From: Candidatus Harrisonbacteria bacterium
Lineage (GTDB): Bacteria > Patescibacteriota > Minisyncoccia > UBA6257 > 02-FULL-45-10c
Length of the DNA: 64,000 nt
Direction: 5' to 3'
Assembly: GCA_016214655.1 (NCBI GenBank)
Contig: JACROC010000005.1
Span: 3,078 to 67,077 of the forward strand
Shown here: positions 438 to 17,816 of the stretch, piece by piece
Position numbering within the stretch: position 1 is the stretch's first letter
Layout of the letters: each line of letters opens with the position of its first letter
Made by a program: the position numbers and the translations under genes
The notes under the pieces: model-generated
Database searches by the model: none
The model's input: only the letters and a program-made list of their open reading frames with translations
What the model was told of the DNA's origin: nothing

Positions 438-995
438 ATGAAAAAGAGATTATTCATAGCCATTAATCTGCCGGAAGATGTTAAGGATAAAATTGAAAAA
501 GCGGTAGAGGAAATACGATATAAATTTATAAACGACGTCCGTTTTTTGTCCAGGGATAATTGGCATATAACCATAACTTTTTTAGGCGACCAGGACGATA
601 AATCTCTGCCGGCGATTATTCAGAGCATGAAGGGGGCGACATCGGGTTTCCAGCAGCCAATTATTAGATTTGCGGATATTGATTATGGCCCGAAAGGCAA
701 GCCGCCGCGAATGATTTGGTTAAACGGCGCCGCCGAGTCGGCGAAAGATTTAGACGTCTTGAAGAGAAATTTAGACGACGGCTTAGTTGAAAACGGAGTT
801 ATATTTAAAAAAGAGCGACGCCATTTTAATATCCACATCACTCTCGCCAGATTTTCCTTTAGCGAAGATTTGCCGGTTATTAAATCCGATTTTAAAACCA
901 GCTTTCAGGCAAAGTCGCTGGACATGATGGAATCGCGCTTTTTACGTTCTGGCGCCGAGTATAATCTTTTGCAAACTATGGCATTTAAACTATAA
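438..995 (+). CDS. thpR: RNA 2',3'-cyclic phosphodiesterase / 2'-5' RNA ligase (2H phosphoesterase family)
   Basis: Carries the two H-x-T-x motifs (HITITFLG and HITLARF) typical of the LigT/ThpR 2H family. Length about 185 aa fits. Confidence 0.75.
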   Translation: MKKRLFIAINLPEDVKDKIEKAVEEIRYKFINDVRFLSRDNWHITITFLGDQDDKSLPAIIQSMKGATSGFQQPIIRFADIDYGPKGKPPRMIWLNGAAESAKDLDVLKRNLDDGLVENGVIFKKERRHFNIHITLARFSFSEDLPVIKSDFKTSFQAKSLDMMESRFLRSGAEYNLLQTMAFKL

Positions 996-1013
996 TAATC
1001 AGATAAAGCTAAA

Positions 1014-2294
1014 ATGCCCAAAAAGCATTACTTAAAAGAGGTCATTCTCTATACCGGATTGTTTATTGCGTTAGCCGCCGTGGGCGCCAGCTCTTTTTAT
1101 TTCGGGTATCAGCGGGGGGCGGCCAGTCCTCGGAAGGTTACGGTGGAAAATCTTACCAATCTTGAAGGAAAAGAAAATTTAAAAACCGATTTCGGCGTTT
1201 TTTGGGAGGCTTGGGACGTTCTAAAAAAAGAGCATCTCAAAGGGGAGGAAGCAAAGGATAAAGATTTAGTTTACGGGGCTATTAAAGGTTTGGTCAGTTC
1301 GCTTGGCGATCCCCACACGGTATTTTTTCCGCCGGAGGATTCCAAGAAATTTGAAGAAGATGTTTCCGGCAATTTTGGCGGAATCGGAGCGGAAATCGGC
1401 ATCAGGAGCAATCAGCTGGTGGTGATAGCTCCGTTAAAAGGGAATCCGGCGGAAAAAGTCGGATTAAAAGCCGGTGATAAAATTGTCGCGATTGACGGGA
1501 AGGGTACGGAGGGGGTAGATGTGAATGAGGCGGTTAAAAAGATCAGGGGAGAAATCGGCACTGAAGTTACGCTGACGATTTTTAGGGATGGCTGGGAACG
1601 AACCAAGGATTTTAAGATTATGCGGGCAAATATTGAAATACCAACTTTGGAATGGGAGCTGATCCAAAAAGACAGCAAAGAATTGGCACATATTAAGCTT
1701 TTCAGTTTTAATCAAAACGCCCCGGCGGTATTTTATAAGGCGGCGCTGGCGGTTTTACTTGGCAAAGCGGACGGAATAATTTTGGATTTAAGAAATGATC
1801 CGGGAGGATATCTGGAGGTGGCGGTTAATCTTGCCGGCTGGTTTCTGAATCGCGGAGAAGTTATCGTGACGGAAAAATTCCGCCAAGGAGATCCGATTGT
1901 TTTTTATGCTAACGGCAACGGCGCTTTGAGAAATGTGCCCACCGTAATTTTAGTAAATAAAGGATCGGCATCGGCTTCGGAAATTTTGGCCGGGGCTTTG
2001 CGCTCTCAGCTCGGAATTAAATTAGTCGGAGAAAAAACTTTTGGCAAGGGGACTGTCCAGGAATTGAGGCCTTTAAGCGACAATTCTAAAATAAAGCTGA
2101 CTATTGCCAACTGGGTTTTGCCGGACGGCCATATTATAGATGATCAGGGGCTGAAGCCGGATGTTGAAGTGGAAATAAAAGAGGAGGATTTGGAAAAAGC
2201 GGAAAAGAATAAAATTAAAATAGATCCCCAATTAGATAAAGCCGCGGAGGTTCTTTTAGAAGAGATCAAGCAAAAATTATTGGTGCAAAGCTAA
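1014..2294 (+). CDS. ctpA: C-terminal processing peptidase, S41 family (PDZ domain)
   Basis: N-terminal TM segment and PDZ region (GIGAEIG...[13 protein letters not shown]). S41 catalytic motifs are DLRNDPGG and [13 protein letters not shown]. Confidence 0.85.
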
Positions 2295-2563
2295 AGGACG
2301 TTTACAACCGTAGCGTAGCGTTGGGACCCGTCAAAGCGGGTTTTTTTGGCAGACTTAAATTTAACTTTGCCGGTTTTCATGGCAAAAATTGTATCATCGC
2401 CGCCCAGTTTAACATTAAGTCCGGGCAAGTATTTCGTGCCTCTTTGCCTTACGATAATTTGTCCGGTGTCCACCATCTGGCCATCGGATCTTTTAATTCC
2501 GAGCCGCTTGGACTCTGACTCCCTATTATTTTTTGCCGCACCAACCGATTTAGTATGTGCCAC
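2291..2563 (-). CDS. rpmA: 50S ribosomal protein L27
   Basis: Begins (GTG start) [22 protein letters not shown]..., the canonical L27 N-terminus. The 3' end overlaps the ctp stop by 4 nt (convergent). Confidence 0.9.
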
Positions 2564-2570
2564 ACCATTT

Positions 2571-2650
2571 AGCTGTTAGCTGTTAGCTATTAGCTGTTAG
2601 AAATTTTAATTTATCTAAAAGCCAAAAGCTCAAAACCAAAAGCTGTAATT
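2571..2650. repeat. tandem heptamer array (AGCTGTT)x4 plus partially complementary array (CTAAAAGCC-like) directly upstream of the rpmA start
   Basis: Direct reading: agctgttagctgttagctattagctgttag followed by ctaaaagccaaaagctcaaaaccaaaagct. In the mRNA sense this gives (CUAACAG)n directly before the GTG start of rpmA. Confidence 0.8.
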
Positions 2651-2672
2651 TATTAAGAAATTATAGTACCAT

Positions 2673-2834
2673 ATGACCGATATGTCAAATATGTCTAATT
2701 GGGCTGATAAGCTTAAAAAACGCGAAGTTATCTTATTTTTAATCTTATTTTTGATCAGTTCTCTTAGTTTTGGACTAGGTTATTTGTTGGCGAAACAAGA
2801 AGGAGCGGCGCCTATCATTATTGAGAAACAGTGA
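2673..2834 (+). CDS. possible small membrane protein (about 53 aa, MTDMSNMSNWADKLKKREVILFLILFLISSLSFGLGYLLAKQEGAAPIIIEKQ)
   Basis: Unannotated short ORF in a 295-bp gap with one clear TM helix. No obvious SD. Coordinates approximate. Confidence 0.3.
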   Translation: MTDMSNMSNWADKLKKREVILFLILFLISSLSFGLGYLLAKQEGAAPIIIEKQ

Positions 2835-2858
2835 TAGGACTAATAAGTTCTATAGGAC

Positions 2859-3620
2859 CTATAGGTAGCCTGTTTGTTTCAGCCATTTGATATTTTCCCA
2901 CTCCCAAAGTTTTTTCGCTCCCAGAAATGCCTGAAAATCTTCTTTCCAAAACGGAAATTCTTGAAGTTCAGTAATGCCAGTTAAGTCTGACCATTGGTGC
3001 GCGCTTTCCTCGCAGGGTTTGGATTTTCCTCGGCGGATTTTATTTCTTCCGCCTTTGGGACGCATAGTTGCTTTGCATTGGAGGCAAGTCTTTATTTGGT
3101 CAATGCGGAGAATCCAGCGGGTTTCTAAACTCGGCAATTCTGCGAGAAGCGCTTCAATATAGGCGGAGGTTTGCAGATTATAATCCCGGTAAATGGCTTG
3201 AGAGGTTTTAATGTCCAAAACTCCGAATTTGCCGTCAATTAAAGCCAGGGTGTCTATGGTTCCGGCGTAGCGGTGTTCCGGGTGAAAAATCCTTTTTTCC
3301 ACGAACTCTTTGTCAACGTGGATATTTCGTTCATCCAAGAAATTTAAAAAGCCATTGATGGCCGGCGCAATCTCCACGGGTATTTCCGGTTTTTCTCCGA
3401 CCAGAAATTTTTCGGTAACTTCGTGGATTAAAGTCCCTTCTTTGGCGGAATTTTCCGTCATTTCTCTGGCGGCATTATAACTGGCAGCTTCGCCATAGAA
3501 TCGGTAGAGAGCGGGCTTGGATTTAATTTCCACGATTTTAGTTACGCGCGGATACCAATGACCGTCAATTTCATAACCGCATTTTTCTTTAAAATCTTCT
3601 GCGTTTTTAAAGTCGTACAT
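2859..3620 (-). CDS. PD-(D/E)xK nuclease with Cas4/RecB-like Cys cluster (orphan Cas4-like)
   Basis: Has a D..(D/E)xK core (GTIDTLALIDGKFGVLDIKTS). One N-terminal Cys (KCGYE) plus a C-terminal C-x2-C...C cluster (TCLQCK...KPC) resembles a Cas4-type Fe-S ligand set. No CRISPR array or other cas genes in the window. Confidence 0.55.
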   Translation of the reverse strand: MYDFKNAEDFKEKCGYEIDGHWYPRVTKIVEIKSKPALYRFYGEAASYNAAREMTENSAKEGTLIHEVTEKFLVGEKPEIPVEIAPAINGFLNFLDERNIHVDKEFVEKRIFHPEHRYAGTIDTLALIDGKFGVLDIKTSQAIYRDYNLQTSAYIEALLAELPSLETRWILRIDQIKTCLQCKATMRPKGGRNKIRRGKSKPCEESAHQWSDLTGITELQEFPFWKEDFQAFLGAKKLWEWENIKWLKQTGYL

Positions 3621-3731
3621 TGTTTAATTCTAGGCTAAATCCGATTGGCTGTAAAATCTTAACGTATTTGTGGGGCTTATGGGATTTATGAGACAGATGG
3701 GTTCTGTGGTAAAATTATAAGAAATATATTT

Positions 3732-5333
3732 ATGGCAGAAAAAAAACAACCAACAGCTTTAATTATTTTTGACGGTTTTGGCATTACCGTTGAGAAGAGG
3801 GGTAATGCCATTGCCGCGGCCAAAACTCCCAATTTAAATCAAATCAGCCAATATTATCCCGGTACTACTTTGCGGGCTTCCGGCGTTGAGGTCGGTTTAG
3901 CCTGGGGAGAAATGGGCAGTTCGGAAGTCGGCCACGCCAATATGGGCGCGGGATTGGTAGTCTATCAGAACCTGGAAAAAATTAATTTAGCCATCCGTGA
4001 TGGCTCTTTTGCTCAGCTCCCAGCTTGGAAGAGGCTAGCTGATCACGCCGTTAAAAATAACTCCAATATTCATTTAATGGGGCTTCTATCTAACGGCGGC
4101 GTCCATTCCCATATTGAGCACATTCTGGCTATTTTACGCAATATTAAAGATTTGAATTATAAAGGCAAGGTTTTTATCCACGCTTTTACTGACGGCCAGG
4201 ATGTGGCTCCGCAATCTGCTTTGATATTTTTGAGTATCCTAAAGGAAGAAATGAGTAAAATTAAAATCGGCGAGATAGCGACTGTGATGGGGCGATACTA
4301 TGCAATGGATAAAAATGAGGAATGGGAACGTACTCAAAAAGCTTATGACTGCTTAACTGAAGGATCCGGAGTTAAGGCCGCGGATCCGGAACAAGCGATC
4401 CTAGACTCTTATTCTAAAGAAGTAAAAGACGAGCATATAAAGCCGGTCGTTATTGTGGATAAAAAAAATCAGCCGGTTGGCCTGGTTAAAGAAGGCGATG
4501 TTCTGATGTTTTTTAATTTCCGCGCCGATCGGGCGAGGCAGATCACCCGCTCTTTTATATTTGCCGATAAATTTGACAAGTTTCCGGTTAAAAAATTTAA
4601 AAATTTGCTGTTTGTTCCCCTGACGCAATATGGACTGGATTATCCGGTAGAGCCGGCTTTTCCTCTCCAGAATATTAAAAATCCGCTTGCCAAAGTTGTT
4701 TCTGACGCCGGAAAAACTCAATTTCATATCGCGGAAGCGGAAAAATACGCCCACGTAACTTATTTTTTCAATGGCGGTCTGGAAACACCGTTTCCAGGAG
4801 AAGATCGGGGCATTATTCCTTCCAAGAAAGTAAAAGGATTTGATGAAAAGCCGGAGATGAGCGCTCATGAGATTACCGGGCGGGTTATCTCGGAATTAGG
4901 AAAGAATAATTATGATTTGTATGTTATCAATTTTGCTAATGGCGATATTGTCGGCCACACCGGTAATTTTAAGGCCGCGGTTAAAGCGATAGAGGTGCTG
5001 GATGAGTGTATAGGTAAGATTAAAGATGAGGTTTTAAAATTAGGCGGCACGTTGGTGATAACCGGCGATCATGGCAATGTGGAAGAGATGATTAACTTAG
5101 AAACCGGCGAGACTGATAAAGAACATTCCACTAATCCGGTGCCGTTTTGGGTTATCAGCGCGGACATTAAAAAAACCTCGGCTATCGAGGGCGTAACTCA
5201 AGTTGAACCCGGCGGAATCCTGGCTGATATTTCACCGACTATTTTGGAATTGATGGGAATATCAAAGCCGGAAGAGATGACAGGGAGTAGTTTAATAAAC
5301 GTGGTTTCTTATTGTCCGCTGCCTAAGGAGTGA
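3732..5333 (+). CDS. gpmI: 2,3-bisphosphoglycerate-independent phosphoglycerate mutase
   Basis: Colinear iPGM signature (LIIFDGFG, EVGHANMGAG, TGDHGN). An extended -10 (TGGTAAAAT) lies about 25 nt upstream. Confidence 0.9.
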   Translation: MAEKKQPTALIIFDGFGITVEKRGNAIAAAKTPNLNQISQYYPGTTLRASGVEVGLAWGEMGSSEVGHANMGAGLVVYQNLEKINLAIRDGSFAQLPAWKRLADHAVKNNSNIHLMGLLSNGGVHSHIEHILAILRNIKDLNYKGKVFIHAFTDGQDVAPQSALIFLSILKEEMSKIKIGEIATVMGRYYAMDKNEEWERTQKAYDCLTEGSGVKAADPEQAILDSYSKEVKDEHIKPVVIVDKKNQPVGLVKEGDVLMFFNFRADRARQITRSFIFADKFDKFPVKKFKNLLFVPLTQYGLDYPVEPAFPLQNIKNPLAKVVSDAGKTQFHIAEAEKYAHVTYFFNGGLETPFPGEDRGIIPSKKVKGFDEKPEMSAHEITGRVISELGKNNYDLYVINFANGDIVGHTGNFKAAVKAIEVLDECIGKIKDEVLKLGGTLVITGDHGNVEEMINLETGETDKEHSTNPVPFWVISADIKKTSAIEGVTQVEPGGILADISPTILELMGISKPEEMTGSSLINVVSYCPLPKE

Positions 5334-8300
5334 AGCGCATTGGTGCTGGAGGAGGAACTGGCGGCGGAGCAGCGGGGGATTGCGGCGCAGGTGGTTGCGA
5401 CATAGGCGGCTGCGGCGTGGCCGCGGTGCCAGGTTTCATTTTAATATCCAGCGTTGGCAGGCCCGCTTTTTCTAATATCAGTGATTCAGACCGGAATGAC
5501 GCGAAGCCGGCTTTAGAGCAGGTGATATAATATTTACCGGGCGTAAGCAGGAAGTGGAAACGTCCTTGCTCATCGGTAACTTTAGTGGCTAAAAGCCAAT
5601 TTTTTTCTTCGTCAAAAATTCTGACGACCGCCAATGACAGGGGAGAGTTAGTGGCTTCATCAATAATCGTGCCGAATGGTTTGAGTAACCGGAAAGTGAA
5701 GTAGATTTTTAACGAATCTAAAATTATATAAACTATGAGCGTGAAGTAGTTCAGAAAGTTTGGGACAATAGCAAGAGAAACAATGCTGACCAGAGTTCCA
5801 AAAGCCAGCAGATACGGATTTAAAAGTTCGATAAATCTCTTAAGGGCGTTCCATATATTGACTCTCTTAAGATATTCCAGACTGATTTCTCCGATGCTCG
5901 GAGTGATGGAAAGTTCTAAGTTAAGAATTTGATCCGTTGTAGATATGGTAATAGCTTCTGTTTCAAAGGTTTCGTATCCGTTCTTAGAAACTTTAATGTA
6001 ATATTTTCCCGAACCTACTAATGCGCCAAAGCGTCCTTCTAAATCGGTAGTTTGGCTATCCTTTAATTTTTTAAACTCTGATTCATAGATTTGGATAGTT
6101 GCCGCCTGGAGAGGTTTGCCGCTTAATTTATCAATAATTCTTCCCCATGGCTTGCGCCGTTTGAACCGGATTAAGCCGAGTAAATAAAATCTGCTCAAAC
6201 TTAATGTTTGAAGCACTTGGGAAAGATTAATTGCGAAAGTGGCGCTGCCGGCAGTAGCGGTAACAGTTACTGCTCCGGCAGTTGCGGTAGAAACGGTTAT
6301 GGAAACTGGTGTTGCAATATCGTCCACTGTTTTTCGCGTGCCCGGATCTTTCCTTAATATTGCGACGGTTTTCTGAACCTCGCTATTTAATACTTTTAAT
6401 GATTCGGTGAATTTAAAACCCTTGGAGATTATTATATTAACCGTGGAATTTGGCGGAAGATTTTCAGCGTTCCATTTGACATTATATTTTTTCCCGATAG
6501 TTAAAGTTTCTCCGCCATTCGGATATAGGAGTTTAATTGACGGACCGCCGGCAGTTTGGGCGTAAGCAACCAACTGGTTAGCGGTAAAAATTTTTCCGAG
6601 TGATGCCGGTATAAATAAACTGCTAATTTCTCCTTCTGTATTTTGCAAAGCGGCCAAAGAAGCAACTAAGTTGAAAGGCGCATCACTGCTATCCTGAATT
6701 GACGAATCGGCAGAGGAGACCACGGTTATTCTGTAGTCGCTGCCCGGGGTAAGCGCTAAGGTGCCAACTTCGCTGGCCAGAACTCCCTTTGAAGTGCTCC
6801 AGGTATGCCGTCCGGTATTTGGAGCGTCGCTTACGATTATTGCAATCCCAGCAGATCCGGTAGTGATGCCTTTAAATGTTTCCAGGAAGCCAGTTGTTAC
6901 TGCATTTCCGATTTCTGCCGCTTCTGCACCAAGGCGGCGGACAGTTTCCAGGGCTTCAGCTGTGGAAACCCGAGCTTCGGCGGCTTCAATAATAGCGTTT
7001 AAAGAATTCGTTGTGATGGCGGTGATATCCAGTCCGGCGGTTTGCGCCTCAGCTAATTCTATAATGATATTGGTGAAGGCGATGGAGCTGATGTCTGAAA
7101 TATTTACCCCTTGGTCTGCGGCCGCATCTAAAGCGGTAATGATAGTGCTTAATGCTTTTGAATCAAGGGTGCTTACATTAACGCCGGAGGTTTGCGCTGA
7201 ACTAAGACCCTGAATAAATAACGACATAACCTCACTATCAATTGTTGTTAGATTTACGCCGGTACTGGCGGCGATATCTATCGCTTGTATCGTGGCAGCT
7301 AGCACTGCGCTATCAACGGCTGAAATGCCGGCGCGTGTTTCAGCAGCCGCATCCATAGCCAGAATGACCGATGAGATGGTTTGGGTATTAAGTGTAGTTA
7401 CATCAACCCCACTCGTCGAGAGCGTATCTACTGCCTGAATAACCGATGATAAAGCTTCGGTATTAATTGTCGTGACATCTGTTCCTTCGGTCGCCGAGGT
7501 ATTAACTGCCTGAATTACTGAAATAAGAGTTTGGGTATTAATTGCGGAAATATCCACGCCGGCTGTTGAAGCCGCGTCTACTGCTTCCACGACCGCCGCT
7601 AATGATTGGGTATCTATTGAAGCAACATCGGTTCCAGTATTTGCGGCAGTGTTTAGAGTTTCAATTACTGTTACGAGGGTATCGCTATTAAGCGTAGTAA
7701 CATCTGATCCTATGTCGGCGTTGCTATCCACCGCTTGTACAACCGCAGCCAGGGTTGTGGCATCGATTGTTGATACATCCAGCCCGGCCGTTGCGCTAAG
7801 TTCTACCGCCTGAAGAACAGCGCTTAATGTATCGTTGCTAATAGTGCTAGTTTCCGTGCCTTCTGCGGCCGACTGCGCTACGGCTTCGGTAACGGCGGTG
7901 ATAGTTTCTGCGCTTGCCGTAACACCAGTTGTTTCTACTGCCGTGGAGACGCTAGTTTCGGCTGTTGCAGTTTGTTCGGTTGTTGGCGTAGGAGTCGGAG
8001 ATGGCGTCGGTGTCGGTTCTGGACTTGGTGCCGGAGCCGGGGCTGGAGCTGGTGTCGGTTCTGGACTTGGTGCCGGAGCCGGCGTTGGAGCCGGTGCCGG
8101 AGCTGGCGTTGGAGTGGGAGATGTTCCTGCACCCGCGCCCGCTCCACCACCGCCACCACCTCCACCGCCGCCTCCACCAGTAGTGCAAGTGGTTGATTCT
8201 GGAGTAATAGTGTAGGTCAAAGATCCGCCGCTGGATGGCATGGTGATAGTTAGGGTGTTTTTGGTGTCGCTGCAGCTGGTGGTTAGGTAATCTGTTCGTG

Positions 8301-8544
8301 AAGCAGTGAGAACTCTCCGGTTGGCAGAGCTGATGCTAAAGCGCTGGTTCGGCGCCATTATGATGGTAAAACTGTTTTCGTCAAAGGCGATTTCGTCTAA
8401 AAGATTAGAACCACTTTCCACATCTAAAAGAATTCCAGCGACGGAAAGCTGGACTTCTCCGGGAGTTAATTCAAAATCCGCAAGCGCCGTGCCGGATAAT
8501 AAAAGCGATAGCAATAATAATCCCACCCCTGCTTTTTTGACCAT
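5323..8544 (-). CDS. giant secreted/surface repeat protein (1073 aa)
   Basis: Signal peptide, poly-Gly run, long Pro-Thr/Pro-Ala linker, and about 14 tandem ~28-aa repeats (consensus about TxGxDVxTIxxxxLxxVIQAVD). It has two carboxypeptidase-regulatory-like beta-sandwich segments (VTDEQGRFHF..PGKYYI and LEGRFGALVGSGKYYIKV) flanking a hydrophobic TM block, and a Pro-rich C-terminal tail. Confidence 0.85.
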   Translation of the reverse strand: MVKKAGVGLLLLSLLLSGTALADFELTPGEVQLSVAGILLDVESGSNLLDEIAFDENSFTIIMAPNQRFSISSANRRVLTASRTDYLTTSCSDTKNTLTITMPSSGGSLTYTITPESTTCTTGGGGGGGGGGGGAGAGAGTSPTPTPAPAPAPTPAPAPSPEPTPAPAPAPAPSPEPTPTPSPTPTPTTEQTATAETSVSTAVETTGVTASAETITAVTEAVAQSAAEGTETSTISNDTLSAVLQAVELSATAGLDVSTIDATTLAAVVQAVDSNADIGSDVTTLNSDTLVTVIETLNTAANTGTDVASIDTQSLAAVVEAVDAASTAGVDISAINTQTLISVIQAVNTSATEGTDVTTINTEALSSVIQAVDTLSTSGVDVTTLNTQTISSVILAMDAAAETRAGISAVDSAVLAATIQAIDIAASTGVNLTTIDSEVMSLFIQGLSSAQTSGVNVSTLDSKALSTIITALDAAADQGVNISDISSIAFTNIIIELAEAQTAGLDITAITTNSLNAIIEAAEARVSTAEALETVRRLGAEAAEIGNAVTTGFLETFKGITTGSAGIAIIVSDAPNTGRHTWSTSKGVLASEVGTLALTPGSDYRITVVSSADSSIQDSSDAPFNLVASLAALQNTEGEISSLFIPASLGKIFTANQLVAYAQTAGGPSIKLLYPNGGETLTIGKKYNVKWNAENLPPNSTVNIIISKGFKFTESLKVLNSEVQKTVAILRKDPGTRKTVDDIATPVSITVSTATAGAVTVTATAGSATFAINLSQVLQTLSLSRFYLLGLIRFKRRKPWGRIIDKLSGKPLQAATIQIYESEFKKLKDSQTTDLEGRFGALVGSGKYYIKVSKNGYETFETEAITISTTDQILNLELSITPSIGEISLEYLKRVNIWNALKRFIELLNPYLLAFGTLVSIVSLAIVPNFLNYFTLIVYIILDSLKIYFTFRLLKPFGTIIDEATNSPLSLAVVRIFDEEKNWLLATKVTDEQGRFHFLLTPGKYYITCSKAGFASFRSESLILEKAGLPTLDIKMKPGTAATPQPPMSQPPAPQSPAAPPPVPPPAPMRFTP

Positions 8545-8681
8545 AAATCCGTGAATTTTAGTAACAATAGAATTATACCATAACTATATTAAAAATCTTA
8601 CCCCTTCAGCGTGAAACTGTGGATAACTTACATTATATATATACCCACGGTTTTGATATAATTATATTGTAGTTTGTAGGT

Positions 8682-11192
8682 TTGTATCGGATCATGAAAA
8701 AGAAAATAGTGCGTAAAAGACGGGGTACGATATCGCGATTATCACGGAAAAAAACGAAAATCTCGAAGTCACAATCTTTTTTCGGCGGTATCCGTTTAAT
8801 TTCTTTTATTTCTGCGGTTGTGATTGCGACTGTGTACGTAGTTTTTATTGTTTCTGGGGCTGCTAATACGACCATTGGTAATAACATCAGCACCAACGGC
8901 AGTTTAAGCGTTTCCGGCACCACAACTTTTAATGGTGTGTCATACACTTGGCCGTCGGCTGACGGATTAAGCGGGCGAGTCTTGTCCACCAACGGTTCCG
9001 GTGGTTTAAGCTGGTCAGCTGCCTCAAGCCAGTGGACCACTTCCGGAAGTAATATTTATTTTACCGGCGGCAATGCCGGCGTTGGCACAACGACTCCTAA
9101 CTGGCTATTACAGGCGGCTGGCACCAGGCCATTTTTTGCTTTATCTGATATTTCTGCCGGTTCCAATCTGAAACATTGGACTCTTTCATCTCAAGGCGGG
9201 AATTTATACATAGCCACTTCCACCGACGCTTATGCAACCAGTTCTATTTCTGCTTTAATGATTAGTAATGCTGGTAATATCGGTATTAGCGGTGTTGCCA
9301 CCAGTACTGCAAAATTATTTATTACCGATGGCGTTGCTACCGGCTCTCCGGCATACAGCGATCTTGTGCCGCAAGCTCTTTCTTGGCAAGCAGCCGCAGG
9401 AAATGCATACACCGGTATAGAAAATACTGCTTATGGCATAAAAGTAGCCATGTCTAGTTTTAATGATTCAGAGAGCGGTTCTTATGGAGAAATCGGCACT
9501 GCCACCAATCATCCCTTCAGGCTTTTTACGAATACCGCAACAGCTCTTAATATCACCACAAGTCAACTCATTGGTATTGGCACCAGCACTCCTTATGCGC
9601 GTCTGACAGTTTGGGGCGATAACGGAAGCGGGAAGAGTTTTGAAGTCGTTAATAATGCCTCCTCAACTTTGTTTATGGTTAAGGAGGCGGGTAATGTCGG
9701 TATCAGTTCCACTTCTCCATCCCAGACTTTTTCAGTGCAGGGCAATTCGCTATTATCCGGAAATCTTGGTGTTGCCAGTGTTACCGCGACCGGAACATTA
9801 ACTCTTTCCGGAATCTCCGGAACTTCCACAATTGCTTCGGGACAAGGATTTGCTATCGGCACAAGCCAGTTAGTTGTAGTAGGAGCCACCGGAGATATTG
9901 GCATCGGCATAACCAATCCGATTGCAGATTTTCAAGTTATCGGAAAATCTTATTTCGGCACGGAAACTTCGCTTTCAAGCGATCTAACTTCAGCTTTTGG
10001 CACGCCGCGCGTTGTTTCGGTTGGCAACAATAATTCCGCTGACGGTTTTGTAAATATTACAGAAGGGAATAATGCTGTTGGTGCGCGTTTTAGAGGCGCG
10101 AAAACTAGATCTACAGATAATGATGCGGACACCATTGTACAAAGTGGCGATAATCTTTTGGAATTAACTTCTTTTGGAGCTGACGGAGCATCTTATCGTT
10201 CCGCGGCTGAAATTTTAATGGAGGTTGATGGCACGCCGGGAAGCTCTGATATGCCTGGAAGAATAGTTTTTTCTACCACTCCGGACGGATCAGCCACTCT
10301 AAATGAGCGGATGAGAATTACTAATGCCGGTTTAGTGGGAATTGGCACTACCTCGCCATCTGCGGCATTGGCATTGGAAAATTCCGCAGTCAACACCAAA
10401 CCCGCCCTTCTCATTAAAGCCGGAGGAGCGGGGGATGGTAATATAGCCATCTCCGTGGACGCGGATGATACCTGCCGAGACTCCGTTAACGTCGCCACCT
10501 GCGTATTAAACGACTTAGCAGAACTCTTCCCAACTACCGAAGAACTGGAAGGAGGAGATATTGTGATGTTTGATCCAGAGAACCCATTTTATATCAAAAA
10601 AGCCCTAATGACTAATGACTCTATGACTAATAACTTATTAGCCGGCGTCATCTCCACTTCTCCAGCCATAGTATTTGAAGGATCTGGTCTCAAAGCTTTG
10701 GGAGGCAAATACACTTCTACTTTAGATAAGGCTCCTTTAGCCCTCTCCGGACGTATCCCAGTCAAAGTTAACCTGGAAGGAGGGGATATCCAGATCGGAG
10801 ATCCCATTACCATCTCCTCTATACCCGGAGTCGGTAAAAAAGCCACTCAAACAGGCAAGATAATAGGATATGCCCTCGAACCTCTCACCACCCAATCTCA
10901 ATCTTACGAGGTCTCACCTCATAAGATTATGATTTTTGCCAACTTAACTTATTATCAATCTTCGGAGGTTGAACCTCCGGATATTGAGGTATCGTCTTCG
11001 GGAGGTTCAACCTCCAATTTATTGAGCTTGATTATTGATACGGTAAAGAACTGGTTAAATTCTATGCAGGTTACGATTGAGAATGGTAAGTACGCAAGGG
11101 GATTGCGACATGCCTCCAGCAGAAGAAATTGCAATAGACGAACAGTCGCCGCCACCGGAGCAGAATCCAGTCATAAATACAGAAAGCTCTGA
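8682..11192 (+). CDS. membrane-anchored fibre-like repeat protein (836 aa)
   Basis: Basic N-terminus plus one TM helix, then repeated G-N-(V/I)-G-I-(G/S)-T-(T/S)-S-P-xxx-L-x-V motifs (at least 5) typical of phage tail-fibre-like or bacterial fibre proteins. Divergently arranged with the 5323..8544 gene. Confidence 0.85.
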   Translation: MYRIMKKKIVRKRRGTISRLSRKKTKISKSQSFFGGIRLISFISAVVIATVYVVFIVSGAANTTIGNNISTNGSLSVSGTTTFNGVSYTWPSADGLSGRVLSTNGSGGLSWSAASSQWTTSGSNIYFTGGNAGVGTTTPNWLLQAAGTRPFFALSDISAGSNLKHWTLSSQGGNLYIATSTDAYATSSISALMISNAGNIGISGVATSTAKLFITDGVATGSPAYSDLVPQALSWQAAAGNAYTGIENTAYGIKVAMSSFNDSESGSYGEIGTATNHPFRLFTNTATALNITTSQLIGIGTSTPYARLTVWGDNGSGKSFEVVNNASSTLFMVKEAGNVGISSTSPSQTFSVQGNSLLSGNLGVASVTATGTLTLSGISGTSTIASGQGFAIGTSQLVVVGATGDIGIGITNPIADFQVIGKSYFGTETSLSSDLTSAFGTPRVVSVGNNNSADGFVNITEGNNAVGARFRGAKTRSTDNDADTIVQSGDNLLELTSFGADGASYRSAAEILMEVDGTPGSSDMPGRIVFSTTPDGSATLNERMRITNAGLVGIGTTSPSAALALENSAVNTKPALLIKAGGAGDGNIAISVDADDTCRDSVNVATCVLNDLAELFPTTEELEGGDIVMFDPENPFYIKKALMTNDSMTNNLLAGVISTSPAIVFEGSGLKALGGKYTSTLDKAPLALSGRIPVKVNLEGGDIQIGDPITISSIPGVGKKATQTGKIIGYALEPLTTQSQSYEVSPHKIMIFANLTYYQSSEVEPPDIEVSSSGGSTSNLLSLIIDTVKNWLNSMQVTIENGKYARGLRHASSRRNCNRRTVAATGAESSHKYRKL

Positions 11193-11208
11193 ATAAAACT
11201 ATAAATAT

Positions 11209-11240
11209 AAAAAATCTCTCGTTACAGAGAGATTTTTTAT
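11209..11240. terminator. bidirectional rho-independent terminator
   Basis: Perfect 11-bp stem aaaaatctctc-gttaca-gagagatttttt with A/T runs on both sides. Lies between the end of the 8682..11192 gene and the convergent 11353..12057 gene. Confidence 0.65.
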
Positions 11241-11352
11241 AATTTATGTATTTTAGGCTTTTAAACGAATATCAGTTTTCTCAGCTAGTTGAAGAACCCA
11301 TCGTTTAAAGTAAATGAAAAGCCGCTCCGATGAGCCATCGGAGCGGCTTGCT

Positions 11353-12057
11353 CTAGTGAGGCATGATGCACTTGTACTGGATGTCGCCCTTGATCCGGCG
11401 GGGCAGCAGGTCTCGTTTCGGCTTTTCCGTATTGCCGCCTTGCTTGCTTTTCTCGCATGCCAGTCTGGCGCGTGCCAGCGATCTTTGCTGGGAAACACCG
11501 CCGTTGTTCAGCCAGTTATTCACTATCCCGGTGCAGAACTCCAAATCGCCGGTCTCGATCATTTTGCAGTGATCGAAATCGCCGATTTCGTCTGCTTTTT
11601 CTTCGGCTTGTAGCTTCATGTGTTCCTGGAGATACCGTAGGGGATAGTAGGCGTGCAGCGTTTCGTGGCAGCCGACATCGTTCATGGTTGCCTCGAAGTT
11701 TGACTGGTCGTAGTTGAGGTCCAGGATCGAGCGATAATATATTTCTATCACTCGTTTTTCGAACATGCCATTTACCCAGACATCATACTGCACTCCCAGT
11801 ACATTAGCTTCGACGCCTTTCACCTTGGTGTACGGTTTTAAGACTATTTCCGGGTGCGGAGCGTCAACGGGTATGCCGAGACGCAGGCGCACTGCATCTG
11901 AGACGGTTTTCCCAAGGTCCAGATCATAGGTGAATTGAAATGGCTCTTCCACTATGATCTTTCTCCGGTCGGTTGTGTGCCTGATTTGAAGATTGGTGCA
12001 TCCCAGATAGGGAAGCACCAATGCGGCCATCAGCCAGAAGCGTATGTGGGTTTTCAT
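11353..12057 (-). CDS. lipoprotein with HExxH motif (putative zinc metallopeptidase), on a GC-rich islet
   Basis: Lipobox signal peptide (LVLPYLGC) and an HETLH zinc-binding-type motif. Strong SD (AAGGAGGT). Local GC is clearly above the window background. Confidence 0.7.
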   Translation of the reverse strand: MKTHIRFWLMAALVLPYLGCTNLQIRHTTDRRKIIVEEPFQFTYDLDLGKTVSDAVRLRLGIPVDAPHPEIVLKPYTKVKGVEANVLGVQYDVWVNGMFEKRVIEIYYRSILDLNYDQSNFEATMNDVGCHETLHAYYPLRYLQEHMKLQAEEKADEIGDFDHCKMIETGDLEFCTGIVNNWLNNGGVSQQRSLARARLACEKSKQGGNTEKPKRDLLPRRIKGDIQYKCIMPH

Positions 12058-12098
12058 CAGTTTACCTCCTTGCGCTAAATTTTCAAGCTTTCAATTAC

Positions 12099-12127
12099 AT
12101 TATATAGTAATTTTTATCATTTGTCAA
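12099..12127 (-). promoter_or_regulatory. consensus sigma70-type promoter (TTGACA-17-TATAAT) for the 11353..12057 gene
   Basis: Minus-strand reading is TTGACAaatgataaaaattactaTATAAT followed by GCGCAAGGAGGTAAACTG-ATG. Confidence 0.6.
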
Positions 12128-12139
12128 CTTTTTCCGTTC

Positions 12140-12176
12140 GCTATAAAAATTAAAAACCACTAACTTTCGTTAGTGG
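12140..12176 (-). terminator. rho-independent terminator of the small lipoprotein gene
   Basis: Minus strand reads CCACUAAC-gaaa-GUUAGUGG then UUUUUAAUUUUU. The stem includes the stop codon of the 12170..12370 gene. Confidence 0.5.
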
Positions 12177-12370
12177 TGGGATATGGCGCATTTTATTTCT
12201 ATCTTTTCTTTGTTTGTAATCCGATTTTTCTTGATTGCCAGGTTGTCTTTCGTGCCGGATTTTTGAATTGCCGTGCCGGCGTTCAGTTCGGTTTTTCTTG
12301 GGCCTAAAGAGCTGCAACCGACTAGAGTAAATATGCCGAAGGTTGCGACAGTCAGGATTCTGGTTTGCAC
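12170..12370 (-). CDS. small lipoprotein (66 aa)
   Basis: GTG start preceded by GGAGGG. Lipobox signal peptide ILTVATFGIFTLVGCSS. Has its own terminator. Preferred over the overlapping 12150..12530 ORF. Confidence 0.5.
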   Translation of the reverse strand: MQTRILTVATFGIFTLVGCSSLGPRKTELNAGTAIQKSGTKDNLAIKKNRITNKEKIEIKCAISHH

Positions 12371-12562
12371 CGAAGTCCCTCCGTACCCATTTTAAAGGAG
12401 CAGTGATAGAATAACCTAATTTAACTTGTGAGTCAATAAGTATATGTAACTGTAGGGGACTATGAAAAACCTTATTTTTTGTACTAACCAAGTGTCGCAC
12501 AAGGTAGCTTTTGTGACATATACTTAGCACGAAAAAGAGGGCCGCTGTTTAAGACCGTTATA

Positions 12563-12829
12563 TTAAGATATTCTATCCATCATCTGTTTTAAGACGTCAA
12601 CGATAAAATATATCAGTTTAAATACCAATTCGCCGATTTTTGAGAATACTAGTTGTAAATTAATCCCTATATTCTCTAATACCCAACGGCCGATAGCTGA
12701 TGATAAATCTAGGAGTTTTTTGAAGAGTTCTAATAGATCTGCCCCGTTTTGCGGTACATAAGTCGCCATTTGATGGGCGGTTTGTACAAACAGATCAAAA
12801 GCCCTAAAAAACCATTCCATTACCATCAT
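12563..12829 (-). CDS. hypothetical protein (88 aa), last gene of the ftsW-murG-gltX-M23 operon
   Basis: Starts 12 nt after the M23 peptidase stop on the same strand. No recognisable motif. Confidence 0.4.
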   Translation of the reverse strand: MMVMEWFFRAFDLFVQTAHQMATYVPQNGADLLELFKKLLDLSSAIGRWVLENIGINLQLVFSKIGELVFKLIYFIVDVLKQMMDRIS

Positions 12830-12840
12830 TATACCATAGC

Positions 12841-14109
12841 CTAGAGATACTTTCCCGGGTCTAGGTCACCGCCATATGGCATTATTGGCCCGCAGTTAAT
12901 CTTACTTGAGCCAATTCTGAAGGTTTGGCTGGCATATACTGTCAAGTGGAGGTGCGGACCGGTCGCATAGCCAGTATTTCCTACATATCCAATTAATTGG
13001 TCACGTTGAACTTCATCTCCCTTTTGAACCGCCTGTAAAGACAGGTGCGCGTATAGAGTTGTCAAATTATTTGGGTGTTCAATTACAATAAATTTGCCGT
13101 ACGCTGCTTTGTAACAATATTTATCTTGATTCCAAACTTCAAGCACCTTTCCTTTTTCTGATGCATAAACCGGAGTTCCTATTGGAGCTGCAAAATCTAG
13201 TCCGTTGTGCCACTGGCCTTTGTAACCTAAGCGGGCAAAACTGGTTGCTCCATAACCCTGAGAGAGTATTCCTCCTGGGACTGGCATGGCCAGCACGCCT
13301 GGCCGCGGAATTGGCAAGAGACTCGGATCAATTTTAGCTCTTAGTTCCGCTTCCAGTTTTTCTATTTCTGACGCAATGGCTGCCTGCTGTTTTTCCAGAT
13401 CACTGATCAATTTTTGATAATTTTTTTCCTGGTTTTTTGTTCGGACCAGCAGATCTTGCCTATCATTTTTTTCTTCAGCCGTGATTGATTTCCGGTTTTT
13501 TAAGTTTTGATTTTCTAATTCCAGTTTTGATTTTTTATCCCCGGTTAGATCTAATTTATCGGATAGTTCTTCATCTAAAACTTCTAATTGTTGTATTTCG
13601 GTTGCTATCCGGTCATTAAAATCGGCTAAATTTTGTATTTCCGATAAACTGGCGGCAAGGCTTTTATGTTTTAAAAGCATAATCAGCGTATTTTCGCTGT
13701 CTTTTTTCTGCACTGTCCTCAAGATTTCGGCAATGCCAGACCGCTGTGTTCCTATTTTTGAACGGACGCCGCCAATATCGTATTCTAAGGACTGGATTTC
13801 CAGTTTAAGTTTGTCAATGTTGATTTCACTGGAACGGATGCTGAGATCAAGCTGGCGGAGGCGATAGTCAATCTGCTTGATTTCTTTTTGGAGAGATTTG
13901 CCCTTTCCCTCGGTTGCCTCCAGCTCCTTTTGGGTTTGCGCGATTTTCTGATTTACCTCCTGCAGTTCACGGGCTTTGTCGTTAATGGCGTTTTTTAGGT
14001 CCGCGGGGATTTCATTAGCGAATGAATAATGAATCAGGAATGATGAATAAAGGAGGGCTGGTAAAAACCAATAAATAAATTTGCGCATAATTCTTGGTTC
14101 ATAATTCAT
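12841..14109 (-). CDS. coiled-coil M23 family metallopeptidase (EnvC/NlpD-like murein hydrolase activator)
   Basis: N-terminal TM/signal and long coiled coil. C-terminal M23 motifs are HNGLDFAAPIGTPVYA and GYATGPHLHLTVY. Confidence 0.8.
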   Translation of the reverse strand: MNYEPRIMRKFIYWFLPALLYSSFLIHYSFANEIPADLKNAINDKARELQEVNQKIAQTQKELEATEGKGKSLQKEIKQIDYRLRQLDLSIRSSEINIDKLKLEIQSLEYDIGGVRSKIGTQRSGIAEILRTVQKKDSENTLIMLLKHKSLAASLSEIQNLADFNDRIATEIQQLEVLDEELSDKLDLTGDKKSKLELENQNLKNRKSITAEEKNDRQDLLVRTKNQEKNYQKLISDLEKQQAAIASEIEKLEAELRAKIDPSLLPIPRPGVLAMPVPGGILSQGYGATSFARLGYKGQWHNGLDFAAPIGTPVYASEKGKVLEVWNQDKYCYKAAYGKFIVIEHPNNLTTLYAHLSLQAVQKGDEVQRDQLIGYVGNTGYATGPHLHLTVYASQTFRIGSSKINCGPIMPYGGDLDPGKYL

Positions 14110-15518
14110 GATTCCAGCTTCTGGATTGCCATTTCTATTCTTCTAAGCGTTTCTTCTTTTCCGATAAAGCTCATTATTTCAAACGGGCCAGGCGATTTGT
14201 TTTTTCCGGATAAGGCAACGCGCAGAGGCCAGAGAATCTCTCCCCTGCCGTTGGTATTGGCAAGTGGCATGATTTCCGCTTCCAATTCTTTTTGACTGAA
14301 TTCATTAATTAAAAGACTGCGTAATAGTTCTTGAGTTAATTTTAAGTTAGTCAGGGTTTTTTCTGCGGACGATTCTTTCCAGATTAAAAGGTTCTTATCA
14401 TATTCATGTATGTCGAAAGAATCTTTCAGGGTTTGGAAATCTGTTAATTTCTGCATTCGGCTCCTCCCTACTTCTAAAAGTTTAAGGGCGTTATTTTTAT
14501 CAGATATGATTTCCGGTTTATTTTTATAAAAATCGATTAAGGCTCCGTAAAGATCTTTTGTGCTCATATTTTTTATATATTCTCCATTAAGCCAATCAAG
14601 TTTTTGAATATTAAAAATTGCGCCGCTCTTTTGAACTCTCTCAAGACTGAATTCTTTTATCAATTCTGATAACGAGAAAATTTCCCTATCATCCGAGGGA
14701 TGCCAGCCAAGTAAGGCGATGAAATTAATCAGCGCCTCTGGTAAATAACCCAAGTTTTTATATTCAAAAACTCCTGTTGCTCCGTGGCGCTTAGAAAGTT
14801 TAGACCGATCCGGGGCTAAATTCATTGGTAAGTGGGCAAAGGCCGGGATATTCCAGTCAAACATTTTATATAGAAGCATGTGTTTTGGTGTTGACGGCAG
14901 CCATTCCTCAGCTCGAATGACGTGAGTGACACTCATTTCATGATCATCAACTACTGATGCCAGATGATAGGTTGGGTAACCATCGGATTTAATTAATATT
15001 TGATCGTCGAATAGCGATAAATCAAAAATAATCTCGCCGTGTATTAAATCGTTTACGGCAATACTCCCCCCTTTCGGCACTTTCATTCTTATCACGAATT
15101 CTTCGTCAGCGACGTCGTTCTTTTTCAAATTTAACTCCCGGCAATGTCCTTTATAGCGCGGAGGTTTTTTTTCGGCTATTTGCCGTTCGCGATCCGCAGT
15201 TAATTTTTCTTTGCTGCAAACACAAATATAGGCGTGGCCATTATTCAGCAGTTCGTTGGCGGCCTTTTTGTATATTTCCAGTCGTTCTGATTGGATAACT
15301 ACTTTATCGTTATTATCTGGAACTAAACCAAGCCAGTTAAGCGCTGCTATGATATGGCCGACCGATTCCGGAATATAGCGTTCACGATCTGTGTCTTCAA
15401 TCCTTAACAAGAATTTTCCACCGTTATGCCTTGCGAATAAAAAGGCAAACAACGCGGTTCGCGCGCCGCCAACATGCAATTCTCCGGTTGGGCTGGGAGC
15501 AAATCTTGTGACAATCAT
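14106..15518 (-). CDS. gltX: glutamate--tRNA ligase
   Basis: HIGH motif (PSPTGELHVGGART) and KMSKS-type KLSKR. Full-length class I GluRS. Confidence 0.9.
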   Translation of the reverse strand: MIVTRFAPSPTGELHVGGARTALFAFLFARHNGGKFLLRIEDTDRERYIPESVGHIIAALNWLGLVPDNNDKVVIQSERLEIYKKAANELLNNGHAYICVCSKEKLTADRERQIAEKKPPRYKGHCRELNLKKNDVADEEFVIRMKVPKGGSIAVNDLIHGEIIFDLSLFDDQILIKSDGYPTYHLASVVDDHEMSVTHVIRAEEWLPSTPKHMLLYKMFDWNIPAFAHLPMNLAPDRSKLSKRHGATGVFEYKNLGYLPEALINFIALLGWHPSDDREIFSLSELIKEFSLERVQKSGAIFNIQKLDWLNGEYIKNMSTKDLYGALIDFYKNKPEIISDKNNALKLLEVGRSRMQKLTDFQTLKDSFDIHEYDKNLLIWKESSAEKTLTNLKLTQELLRSLLINEFSQKELEAEIMPLANTNGRGEILWPLRVALSGKNKSPGPFEIMSFIGKEETLRRIEMAIQKLES

Positions 15519-15519
15519 T

Positions 15520-16677
15520 TTATGAAATAAAAGTTAATAAATATTTTGCGATAATTGTTGCGGCGTCCGGCCGGTAAAAACTTCTGGCTGCGTCACTCAT
15601 TTTTTGAAGTAGCTCCGGATTTTTAAATAATTTATTTAATTCATCCATGATTAAGTGGCTTAAAAGGTTGGCTTCTTCAATGACGATTGCCGCTCCGATA
15701 TGTGCGTAGTTGTAGGCATTTTCACGCTGGTGATCATTAGCAGATTCCGGCAACGGAATTAAAATGGCCGGTTTTCCAAAGGCGGCTAGCTCAAAGATGG
15801 AGCCGGCGCCCGATCTGGAGATTGCGAAATCGGCAGCTGTCAGCGCGATGCCCATATTATCTTGGAAAAACGGGACAAAATGGTAACGCTTTTTAAGATT
15901 TTCATCCCAGTCTTTGGCTAAAAATTCAAATTCCTTTTTATAGTTGTCATAATTGGTAATGCCTACCTGATGGAGTATTTGGAAGTCTTTAATAAATACT
16001 TCTAAGCTTTCCAAAACAAAGTTATTAAGCCGTTCTGCGCCTTGGGACCCACCGATAATCAAAAGCAGTGGCTGGCTGGAATCAAATCCAAGAAGTTTTT
16101 TTGCTTCGGCCAATGCCTTATCTCCCGCTGGTTCAAGGTCCGCAATTTGCTGGAATAAAAATTCTCGCACCGGGTTCCCGATTACTTCAACATCTTTTTT
16201 CGGGAAGTATTCATCTGTAGATGCGAAGGCCAGAAATATTTTTTTTGCCAATTTACCGGAGATAGAATTGGTTAAGCCGGGAATGGTATCTGATTCGTGA
16301 ATAACAACCGGAATCAGATAAAAACGGCTGACTAAAATTATCGCTAGCGCGCCGGGGCCTCCTTTGGAGAAAACTACGTCCGGCATAAACCAAAATAGTT
16401 TCCAGAGCAGTTGGATTAAACTTAAGAAAAATTTCGGAATATCAATAAGATTAAGCGGAGTCCAGTACCGCCGTAGTTTGCTGGAAATGATTGGAACAAA
16501 ATCAATATCACTGTTTATGATATCTTCAGCATATCCCCTAGCACTGCCGAAATATCGCATATCCAAAGTGATTCCGTATGGTTCAGCCAGGGTTTTTAAT
16601 TCACCAGCAACCGCAATCAGCGGGTAAATATGCCCGCCGGTTCCTCCACCAGCAAGCAGAACTCTCAATTTTTTCAT
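15520..16677 (-). CDS. murG: undecaprenyldiphospho-muramoylpentapeptide beta-N-acetylglucosaminyltransferase
   Basis: N-terminus LLAGGGTGGHIYPLIAVA and the GT28 C-terminal domain. Confidence 0.9.
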   Translation of the reverse strand: MKKLRVLLAGGGTGGHIYPLIAVAGELKTLAEPYGITLDMRYFGSARGYAEDIINSDIDFVPIISSKLRRYWTPLNLIDIPKFFLSLIQLLWKLFWFMPDVVFSKGGPGALAIILVSRFYLIPVVIHESDTIPGLTNSISGKLAKKIFLAFASTDEYFPKKDVEVIGNPVREFLFQQIADLEPAGDKALAEAKKLLGFDSSQPLLLIIGGSQGAERLNNFVLESLEVFIKDFQILHQVGITNYDNYKKEFEFLAKDWDENLKKRYHFVPFFQDNMGIALTAADFAISRSGAGSIFELAAFGKPAILIPLPESANDHQRENAYNYAHIGAAIVIEEANLLSHLIMDELNKLFKNPELLQKMSDAARSFYRPDAATIIAKYLLTFIS

Positions 16678-17786: not shown

Positions 17787-17816
17787 TTGGTGAGATGGCT
17801 AAAAGTTAAAAGCTTC

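Follow-up and report, generated by a model that had tools for sequence, protein, structure and literature searches.

Attachment to other cells is believed to be the way of life of Patescibacteria, yet we know almost nothing about how their surface proteins are mounted. In Gram-positive bacteria, the stalk repeats of surface proteins (Rib, the G5-E repeats of SasG, and the FIVAR-GA repeats of Ebh) are tandem and length-variable, lie between a distal domain and an anchor, and differ in copy number. Natural alpha-solenoids include the 24-residue leucine-rich-repeat variant (LRV) of Azotobacter. Surface proteins of Mollicutes and other microbes carry PARCEL repeats of 25-26 residues (PMC2996958). 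Here we describe a repeat-bearing surface protein encoded on the minus strand at positions 5323 to 8544 of a 64,000-nucleotide stretch of contig JACROC010000005.1 (Candidatus Harrisonbacteria bacterium, assembly GCA_016214655.1). The whole stretch is called the window below. The protein ends in a membrane module that recurs in thousands of protein clusters.

The product of this open reading frame (ORF) is a Sec-exported, membrane-anchored cell-surface protein of a Patescibacteria (candidate phyla radiation, CPR) bacterium. We consider it slightly better than an even bet that the protein has three layers, in which a repeat stalk would stand on a polytopic anchor whose beta-sandwich domains face inward. 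Its parts are listed from the N terminus, with residues in amino acids (aa) and transmembrane segments abbreviated TM:

5323..8544, minus strand: whole ORF, 1073 aa
8479..8544, minus strand: signal peptide, aa 1-22, with a KK n-region, a Leu-rich core, and a cleavage site between ALA and D
8182..8478, minus strand: subfamily-defining beta-rich domain at the N terminus, aa 23-121, in which two Cys (C91, C120) are conserved
7978..8178, minus strand: flexible linker, with G12 and (AG)3 at aa 123-140 and PT/PA/PE repeats at aa 141-189
aa 190-204: Thr/Glu/Ala-rich lead-in
6958..7932, minus strand: repeat array of 13 tandem 25-aa units, aa 205-529
6325..6957, minus strand: mid region, aa 530-740, a long helix followed by beta-rich segments
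6166..6324, minus strand: juxtamembrane segment, aa 741-793, with TM-a at about aa 745-770 (Ala/Thr/Gly/Val-rich, hydrophobic) and TM-b at about aa 771-792
6142..6168, minus strand: basic cluster and motif RFKRRKPWG, aa 793-801, a family hallmark that opens beta-sandwich domain 1
5905..6150, minus strand: CarboxypepD_reg / transthyretin-like domain 1, aa 799-880 (PF13620)
5683..5835, minus strand: TM2-TM3 helical hairpin, aa 904-954, with a short VPNFLNY loop
5434..5679, minus strand: CarboxypepD_reg / transthyretin-like domain 2, aa 956-1037 (PF13620)
5326..5433, minus strand: Pro-rich C-terminal tail, aa 1038-1073 (36 aa), missing from the homologue P0001

The frame has an ATG start and comprises 1073 codons plus a stop. 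It is convergent with the iPGM gene (3732-5333), which it overlaps by 11 nt at 5323-5333. The integrity of the gene is supported because a collinear homologue exists: P0001, the only full-length homologue found, matches at 50% identity over 97% coverage. Searches with the whole protein were swamped by low-complexity PT/PA matches, and only P0001-P0005 were informative. The signal peptide is of the Sec type (MVKKAGVGLLLLSLLLSGTALA, cleaved before D at an AXA site). An earlier sequence-only reading of this DNA, made by a model, had described an exported, membrane-anchored protein with a signal peptide, poly-Gly and PT/PA linkers, and a Pro-rich tail, and all of these parts are present. The assignment of the genome to Patescibacteria is supported by the GltX encoded in the window, whose relatives (39-57% identity) are all metagenome-assembled and mostly labelled Patescibacteria, with two archaeal labels. 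The N-terminal domain gives zero matches in Pfam or NCBIfam. Within the mid region, a half-domain at about aa 675-723 weakly resembles Kre9/KNH Ig-like domains (PF10342, E 6e-4, under the cut-off).

Compared with the Gram-positive stalks, the array has a similar placement and a variable copy number but no sequence relation. The anchor also differs, being a polytopic membrane module and not an LPXTG motif for sortase. LPXTG/sortase, lipoprotein, SLH, and PEP-CTERM anchors were all considered and rejected; a regular-expression scan of the protein finds neither a lipobox nor LPXTG, and Pfam reports no SLH domain.

The anchor module is about 290 aa long and runs in the order TM-a/TM-b, basic cluster, CarboxypepD_reg domain, TM hairpin, second CarboxypepD_reg domain. 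In this protein PF13620 scores 86.3 bits against a gathering cut-off of 32.3, in two stretches at about aa 799-880 and 956-1037. Two such domains on either side of a hydrophobic segment had been proposed from the sequence alone. The domains hold, but the segment, put at 40 aa, measures 51 aa (904-954) and comprises two helices with a Kyte-Doolittle value of 2.0.

A profile built from the C-terminal 290 aa of six proteins was searched against 1.84 billion entries. At E<=1e-3 it matched 12803 representatives of clusters drawn at 50% identity, and 2671 of these remained at E<=1e-30; a few of the top matches are giant proteins with multiple CarboxypepD_reg domains. Among the proteins examined, 233 match the module end to end. 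It is C-terminal in 95% of cases and is preceded by 0-2563 aa. The N-terminal regions of members include beta-propellers, FN3 domains, and GW-type repeats, and a signal-peptide-like N terminus was recognized by a crude rule in at least 127 of 155 long members (at least 82%). Every member with a named lineage is patescibacterial: six of the named members belong there (Patescibacteria, Paceibacterota, Nomurabacteria), and two are called just 'bacterium'. NCBI labels them 'carboxypeptidase-like regulatory domain-containing protein' or 'hypothetical protein'.

The protein from the window shares with this family the order of elements, the basic cluster, the PWG motif, and the C-terminal position. 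Its module aligns end to end with those of P0002-P0005 at 23-26% identity, and the RFKRRKPWG motif corresponds to a family consensus of rKrrrPWG after TM-b. The subfamily differs in having weaker TM-a and TM-b segments, a FAINLSQ loop where the family has NPLSFSE, and shorter inserts in the first sandwich.

An AlphaFold2 (AF2) model of aa 705-1045, made from a 110-sequence alignment, has a mean predicted local distance difference test (pLDDT) score of 84.3, with values >90 in both sandwiches, which take the 7-strand fold of transthyretin-like domains. Its anchor helices span residues 712-732, 734-758, 774-792, 889-926, and 930-953. By Foldseek, the sandwich matches the transthyretin-like domain of carboxypeptidase D (5aq0) with a target-normalised TM-score of 0.86 and a root-mean-square deviation of 1.5 A, and single sandwiches also match pilins and SdrD. 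Nothing in the Protein Data Bank (PDB) covers the whole module in a Foldseek search (query-normalised TM-score <=0.23), and neither Pfam nor NCBIfam holds a model that spans it. A literature search found no description of the module or of the repeat. The topology had been called unusual, which is borne out insofar as it lacks a PDB counterpart or a whole-module family model; the layout itself is common, as the clusters retrieved at the stricter threshold show.

The closest described relatives of the sandwiches are the CarboxypepD_reg domains (PF13620; PDB 5aq0, 1qmu). Both sandwiches exceed the Pfam cut-off and can be superposed on 5aq0. Unlike in carboxypeptidase D, however, they are interleaved with TM helices, are preceded by a basic cluster, and are probably cytoplasmic. 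The peptidase or TonB-receptor context of other CarboxypepD_reg proteins is absent here.

The sandwiches had originally been assumed to be extracellular. Charge, composition, and gene fusions point the other way, and together they suggest that both sandwiches face the cytoplasm, an orientation that we favor over the extracellular one with reasonable but not firm confidence. In 234 aligned modules, clusters of lysine and arginine (K/R) lie directly after TM-b, before TM2, and after TM3, and the TM2-TM3 loop is short and uncharged. The 12 residues that follow TM-b contain on average 4.2 K+R (208 members). Exported regions hold 4.1% K+R and 2.0% Cys, versus 12.5% and 0.3% in the module, and the K+R content of the module exceeds that of the exported region in 126 of 126 members. 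Two members, P0003 and P0220, continue beyond the second sandwich with a signal-peptide-like TM segment and then a surface-type domain. This arrangement makes sense only if the second sandwich lies inside.

Several observations weigh against an inward orientation. In most members TM-a and TM-b alike are of moderate hydrophobicity, and if this region crossed the membrane an even number of times, the sandwiches would lie outside. In this protein both segments are weak (Kyte-Doolittle values of 1.35 and 1.11 for TM-a and TM-b, versus family medians of 1.76 and 1.66), such that a plain TM2-TM3 hairpin could serve as the anchor with everything else outside. CarboxypepD_reg, CnaB, and transthyretin-like sandwiches are typical of extracytoplasmic proteins. 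Moreover, the P0003 and P0220 fusions could be artefacts of annotation or assembly. An appreciably less probable arrangement of the same protein is that the membrane is crossed by the TM2-TM3 hairpin alone or by the full set of four hydrophobic segments, which would leave both sandwiches on its outer face, where they might bind wall polymers or adjoining surface proteins. The Foldseek matches to pilins and SdrD also fit this arrangement. It would nevertheless require that four to five K/R residues right after TM-b, and more after TM3, be translocated in nearly all members. It would expose a module that is cytoplasm-like in composition and almost free of Cys, a bias found throughout the members compared, and it would consign the surface-type domains of P0003 and P0220 to the cytoplasm.

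Some further features of individual family members were seen. In the P0003 (L022 10001-12406) and P0220 fusions, a Pro-rich/basic linker precedes the TM segment, which has no start Met. The extra surface-type domain of P0003 resembles the product of a separate gene downstream of the L018 module gene (8005-8877). The short database members P0277 (359 aa) and P0351 (363 aa) are truncated gene calls. The true ORFs, L018 6462-7991 and L019 7144-9092, are longer and include a signal peptide and a Pro-rich linker, and in L019 an assembly gap (a run of N) falls within the linker. In this family, assemblies and gene calls seem to break systematically at low-complexity linkers.

The second distinctive part of the protein is its repeat array. 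The sequence-only reading proposed about 14 repeats of 28 aa. A tandem array is indeed present, but autocorrelation of residue identity (0.34, 0.33, and 0.30 at lags 25, 50, and 75) gives 13 units of 25 aa, of which the first and some distal ones are degenerate. A hidden Markov model (HMM) built from five units recovers the others, as profile-based detection of a true repeat should: nine of 12 matched stretches score at independent E-values of 7e-5 to 1e-15, and all are in register. None of 200 composition-preserving shuffles yielded a domain >10 bits with the same model.

At the DNA level the units are far apart, as had been noticed from the sequence alone. Mean identity between units is 35% for protein and 49% for nucleotides, identical residues in different units use the same codon in only 37.5% of cases, and the longest exact nucleotide repeat is 13 nt. 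Tandem Repeats Finder (TRF) calls no tandem repeat in the array and flags only the low-complexity linker DNA. A gapless search detects a 75-nt register only in units 4-8, at 61-75% identity. The array is old and diverged.

The region is rich in Ala, Thr, Ser, and Val, and antisense ORFs are present, as would be expected if the repeat were compositional bias only or the ORF an assembly or annotation artefact. This explanation is effectively refuted, and we give it almost no credence. The HMM is specific for register and finds nothing in shuffled sequences, Gly occupies unit position 25 in 19 of 20 units, and a syntenic orthologue carries the same units.

The consensus of the unit is [VTLI]-[DN]-[VI]-[TS]-[TA]-I-[DSN]-[TS]-[QDE]-[AT]-L-[SA]-[SAT]-[VI]-[IV]-[QE]-A-[VLI]-[DN]-x-A-x-x-x-G, with hydrophobic residues at positions 1, 3, 6, 11, 14, 15, and 18 and D or N at positions 2, 7, and 19. 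The array has a net charge of -35, three K/R in 325 aa, and zero Pro. The hydrophobic moment of unit positions 8-24 is maximal at 100 degrees, and the top spectral period of the array is 3.57 aa. DSSP assignment on a full-length AF2 model gives each unit a single helix of about 16 residues, with a 3-residue turn before it. This model, made from a two-sequence alignment, has a pLDDT of only 33.6, which is too low for a fold search, and its secondary structure alone was used, with caution. Each unit is thus predicted to form one amphipathic helix and a short connector.

No family in Pfam or NCBIfam matches the array even at E<=10, and LRV is not found among Pfam matches. In the PDB, no natural family was matched; the matches are to designed helical repeat proteins, best to 8cwy/8cws (E ~1e-6) and more weakly to 5cwb/5cwg. 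The alignment with 8cwy extends over about 300 residues with few gaps and pairs one helix and loop per unit. The designed proteins (5cwb/5cwg and the arms of 8cwy and 8cws) share with the array one helix and one loop per ~25 residues, whereas the array is acidic and K/R-poor. We read the match as a convergence of pattern and composition that supports a helical solenoid.

Three points tell against that structure. The repeat is modelled at low confidence only, the resemblance to designed proteins is not homology, and two AI-designed TIM barrels also match the array weakly, which leaves room for a beta-alpha unit. A search with the repeat and mid region alone found nothing at E<=1e-3; it missed even P0001, probably because Ala/Thr-rich proteins saturated the candidate list, and this negative result is therefore weak.

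Two described repeat types were considered as homes for the unit. A canonical leucine-rich repeat (LRR) was set aside, as no Pfam LRR family matches and the consensus does not fit LxxLxLxxNxL. The other candidate is a divergent form of the PARCEL / DUF285 / TIGR02167 surface repeat, which is LRR-like and 25-26 residues long. The two have in common a 25-residue period, an amphipathic helix, variable copy number, and occurrence in membrane-targeted surface proteins. In one register they also share the hydrophobic spacing D-[IV]-[ST]-x-[WI]-[DN]-T-x-x-[VL]-x-x-[MV]-x-x-[MA]-[FV]. Against a set of PARCEL units from PMC2996958, the profile scores 2.9 in register, versus a mean of -17.3 over the other 24 shifts, and 2% of column permutations reach this score.

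However, the array alone gives no DUF285, LRR, or TIGR02167 match at E<=10, and among PDB structures a profile search retrieves none of LRR or DUF285 type. Missing too are the W, M-F, and F-N-Q residues that mark PARCEL units; the array has I/L, A-V, and x-x-G at these positions, and the per-column scores there are negative. The DNA also lacks the dyad symmetry of PARCEL elements, with a single 21-nt imperfect palindrome in 1.1 kb, and there is no sign of mobility. Membership in PARCEL/DUF285 was consequently rejected as improbable on account of the absent HMM match, hallmarks, and palindromic DNA, leaving a resemblance only.

Relatives with the same N-terminal domain differ in the number of units they carry. 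An HMM of this domain finds P0290, P0322, P0342, P0001, P0167, P0229, P0180, and P0236 at E-values of 2.5e-43 to 6e-14. The insert between head and anchor varies as follows:

P0290, P0322, and P0342 (~445 aa): N-terminal domain fused straight to the anchor; 0 units
P0167, P0229, P0236, and probably L002 (truncated where its contig ends): poly-Gly/Pro linker and mid region; no canonical unit
P0180: about 4 units by inspection, although the repeat HMM scores just one, weakly
P0001: 12 units
Window protein: 13 units

On these alignments, the array is an insert of varying length that is specific to the lineage, and the head and anchor on either side of it are conserved. Because relatives with the same N-terminal domain and anchor have 0, ~4, or 12 units, the array is dispensable for the family and variable in length. 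The mid region is kept in P0001, P0167, P0229, P0180, P0236, and L002. P0001 differs from the window protein by one exact 25-aa gap in the array; the terminal units of the two are positionally orthologous, and the central units are more alike among themselves. Between these two proteins, conservation is 64-69% in the anchor, 48% in the repeats, 47% in the mid region, and 38% in the N-terminal domain. The sequence-only reading had proposed that selection keeps the array. Neither comparison bears this out, since the array is no more conserved than the mid region and the unit number varies among relatives that share its head and anchor.

The contig of P0001 is syntenic with the window, with iPGM, S41 peptidase, and LigT genes close by. 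On the orthologous contig L001, an enolase gene and a short pyruvate-kinase-like gene (4492-6533) lie between the surface-protein gene and iPGM. A search of metagenome contigs returned two relatives only, L002 and L003, both incomplete. A search of genome contigs with the protein found no relative, and thus no close representative of the species is present there.

Variable repeats between a head and an anchor are by default read as spacers, and this weakens the case for such a role here. A rather doubtful alternative is that function resides in the array's own surface, with the array serving as a solenoid adhesin or a cation-binding module that touches a host cell or matrix. Ligand binding is frequent among solenoid repeats, the array is strongly negative with D/N conserved at three unit positions, and its conservation between orthologues equals that of the mid region and exceeds that of the N-terminal domain. 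Against this, close relatives with the same head and anchor have no array or only ~4 units, the variable residues are mostly small and polar (S/T/A) instead of forming a diversified binding surface, and there is no homologue with a known ligand.

The explanation that we prefer remains the three-layer protein with inward-facing sandwiches. The family-wide anchor of ~290 aa would carry unrelated exported N-terminal domains in thousands of patescibacterial proteins. In this subfamily the distal head would be the specific N-terminal beta domain of ~100 aa with its conserved Cys pair, and the insert between head and anchor would consist of the Gly/Pro-Thr linker, the thirteen 25-residue units, and the ~200-aa mid region. 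Each unit would form an amphipathic helix of ~16 residues with an N-cap and an 8-9-residue connector that ends in Gly. Stacking of the repeats, we infer, would give a rod that is rigid, strongly acidic, and similar to an alpha-solenoid. If each unit adds ~1 nm of axial stacking, then a rough estimate of the rod length is 10-13 nm. Rod and linker together could space the head away from the membrane, past the wall or surface layer, with a reach set by the number of units. Anchoring would be achieved by one span in the TM-a/TM-b region together with the TM2-TM3 hairpin, which would place the sandwiches and the Pro-rich tail on the cytoplasmic face.

The genes that neighbor module-family genes offer one recurrent pattern. 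Tail-fibre-like (below, fibre-like) genes were found at the following positions:

8682..11192, plus strand, window: divergent neighbor, 836 aa, with an N-terminal signal-anchor, fibre-like, and with four GIGTTSP-type motifs
1-1314, L001: fibre-like gene
9563-15991, L018: fibre-like gene
966-7178, L019: fibre-like gene
2763-9164, L020: fibre-like gene
6381-9992, L021: fibre-like gene
13891-19242, L022: fibre-like gene

The encoded proteins carry GIGT(T/S)xP motifs, and several have a Peptidase_S74 chaperone domain and an SDxRxK motif. The gene at 8682-11192 is the only ORF of this GIGTTSP fibre-like kind in the window. Its product has no Pfam match, and it shares a C-terminal domain with the L019 fibre protein (44% identity over 116 aa). 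The distance between fibre-like and module-family genes is no more than 2 kb in L001, L018, L019, L020, L021, and L022, and 3.3 kb on the contig of P0305; no fibre-like gene was found in L023-L025. Adjacency is thus seen in 6-7 of ~10 independent loci, and in the fibre-bearing loci all GIGT-motif ORFs found lie within 2 kb of a module gene. There is no fixed operon around module-family genes, and the frequent adjacency of fibre genes alone stands out. This pattern of gene order suggests that fibre gene and module gene may be functionally linked.

Other features of these loci were noted. In L024 (7336-10011) and on the P0305 contig, the module gene has three consecutive unannotated genes (~290-340 aa) immediately upstream, and their presence in two unrelated loci may mark a conserved cassette. 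In the window, a 788-aa ORF on the minus strand at 19564-21930 weakly matches T4SS-DNA_transf, DUF87, and TrwB (coupling protein / HerA-like ATPase) models, and it may be related to the patescibacterial type IV secretion system (T4SS) of bioRxiv 10.1101/2025.01.22.634366. No tRNA, tmRNA, or Rfam family was detected at threshold in the window. The guanine-plus-cytosine (GC) fraction is 0.465-0.469 at window positions 6001-12000, versus ~0.40-0.42 in the rest of the window. This stretch coincides with the two Ala/Gly/Thr/Pro-rich surface-protein genes, and the GC rise probably reflects their coding for these residues. Horizontal transfer is an unlikely source, as synteny with iPGM is retained in L001 and L002.

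A repeat-bearing surface protein alone is an ordinary kind of object. The main interest of this locus is the widespread, uncharacterised anchor module and its possibly inward-facing domains, not the repeat. The protein clearly exemplifies a very large family without a name, in which thousands of clusters share one C-terminal TM module. If the sandwiches are truly cytoplasmic, then the module would do more than hold the protein in the membrane, and it could connect the cell surface with the interior. We offer as a speculative proposal, with the odds at present against it, that the module is an undescribed mount used throughout the Patescibacteria, that its cytoplasmic transthyretin-like domains couple diverse ectodomains, here borne on an adjustable acidic stalk of helical repeats, to an intracellular partner or to the assembly of the neighboring fibre proteins, and that the 25-residue unit is a new natural single-helix solenoid repeat. 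Comparison of repeat number among relatives, which had been proposed as a check, has provided a natural series of 0, ~4, 12, and 13 units for asking whether stalk length matters. The adjacency of fibre genes, in turn, provides a concrete hypothesis for the partners of module proteins.

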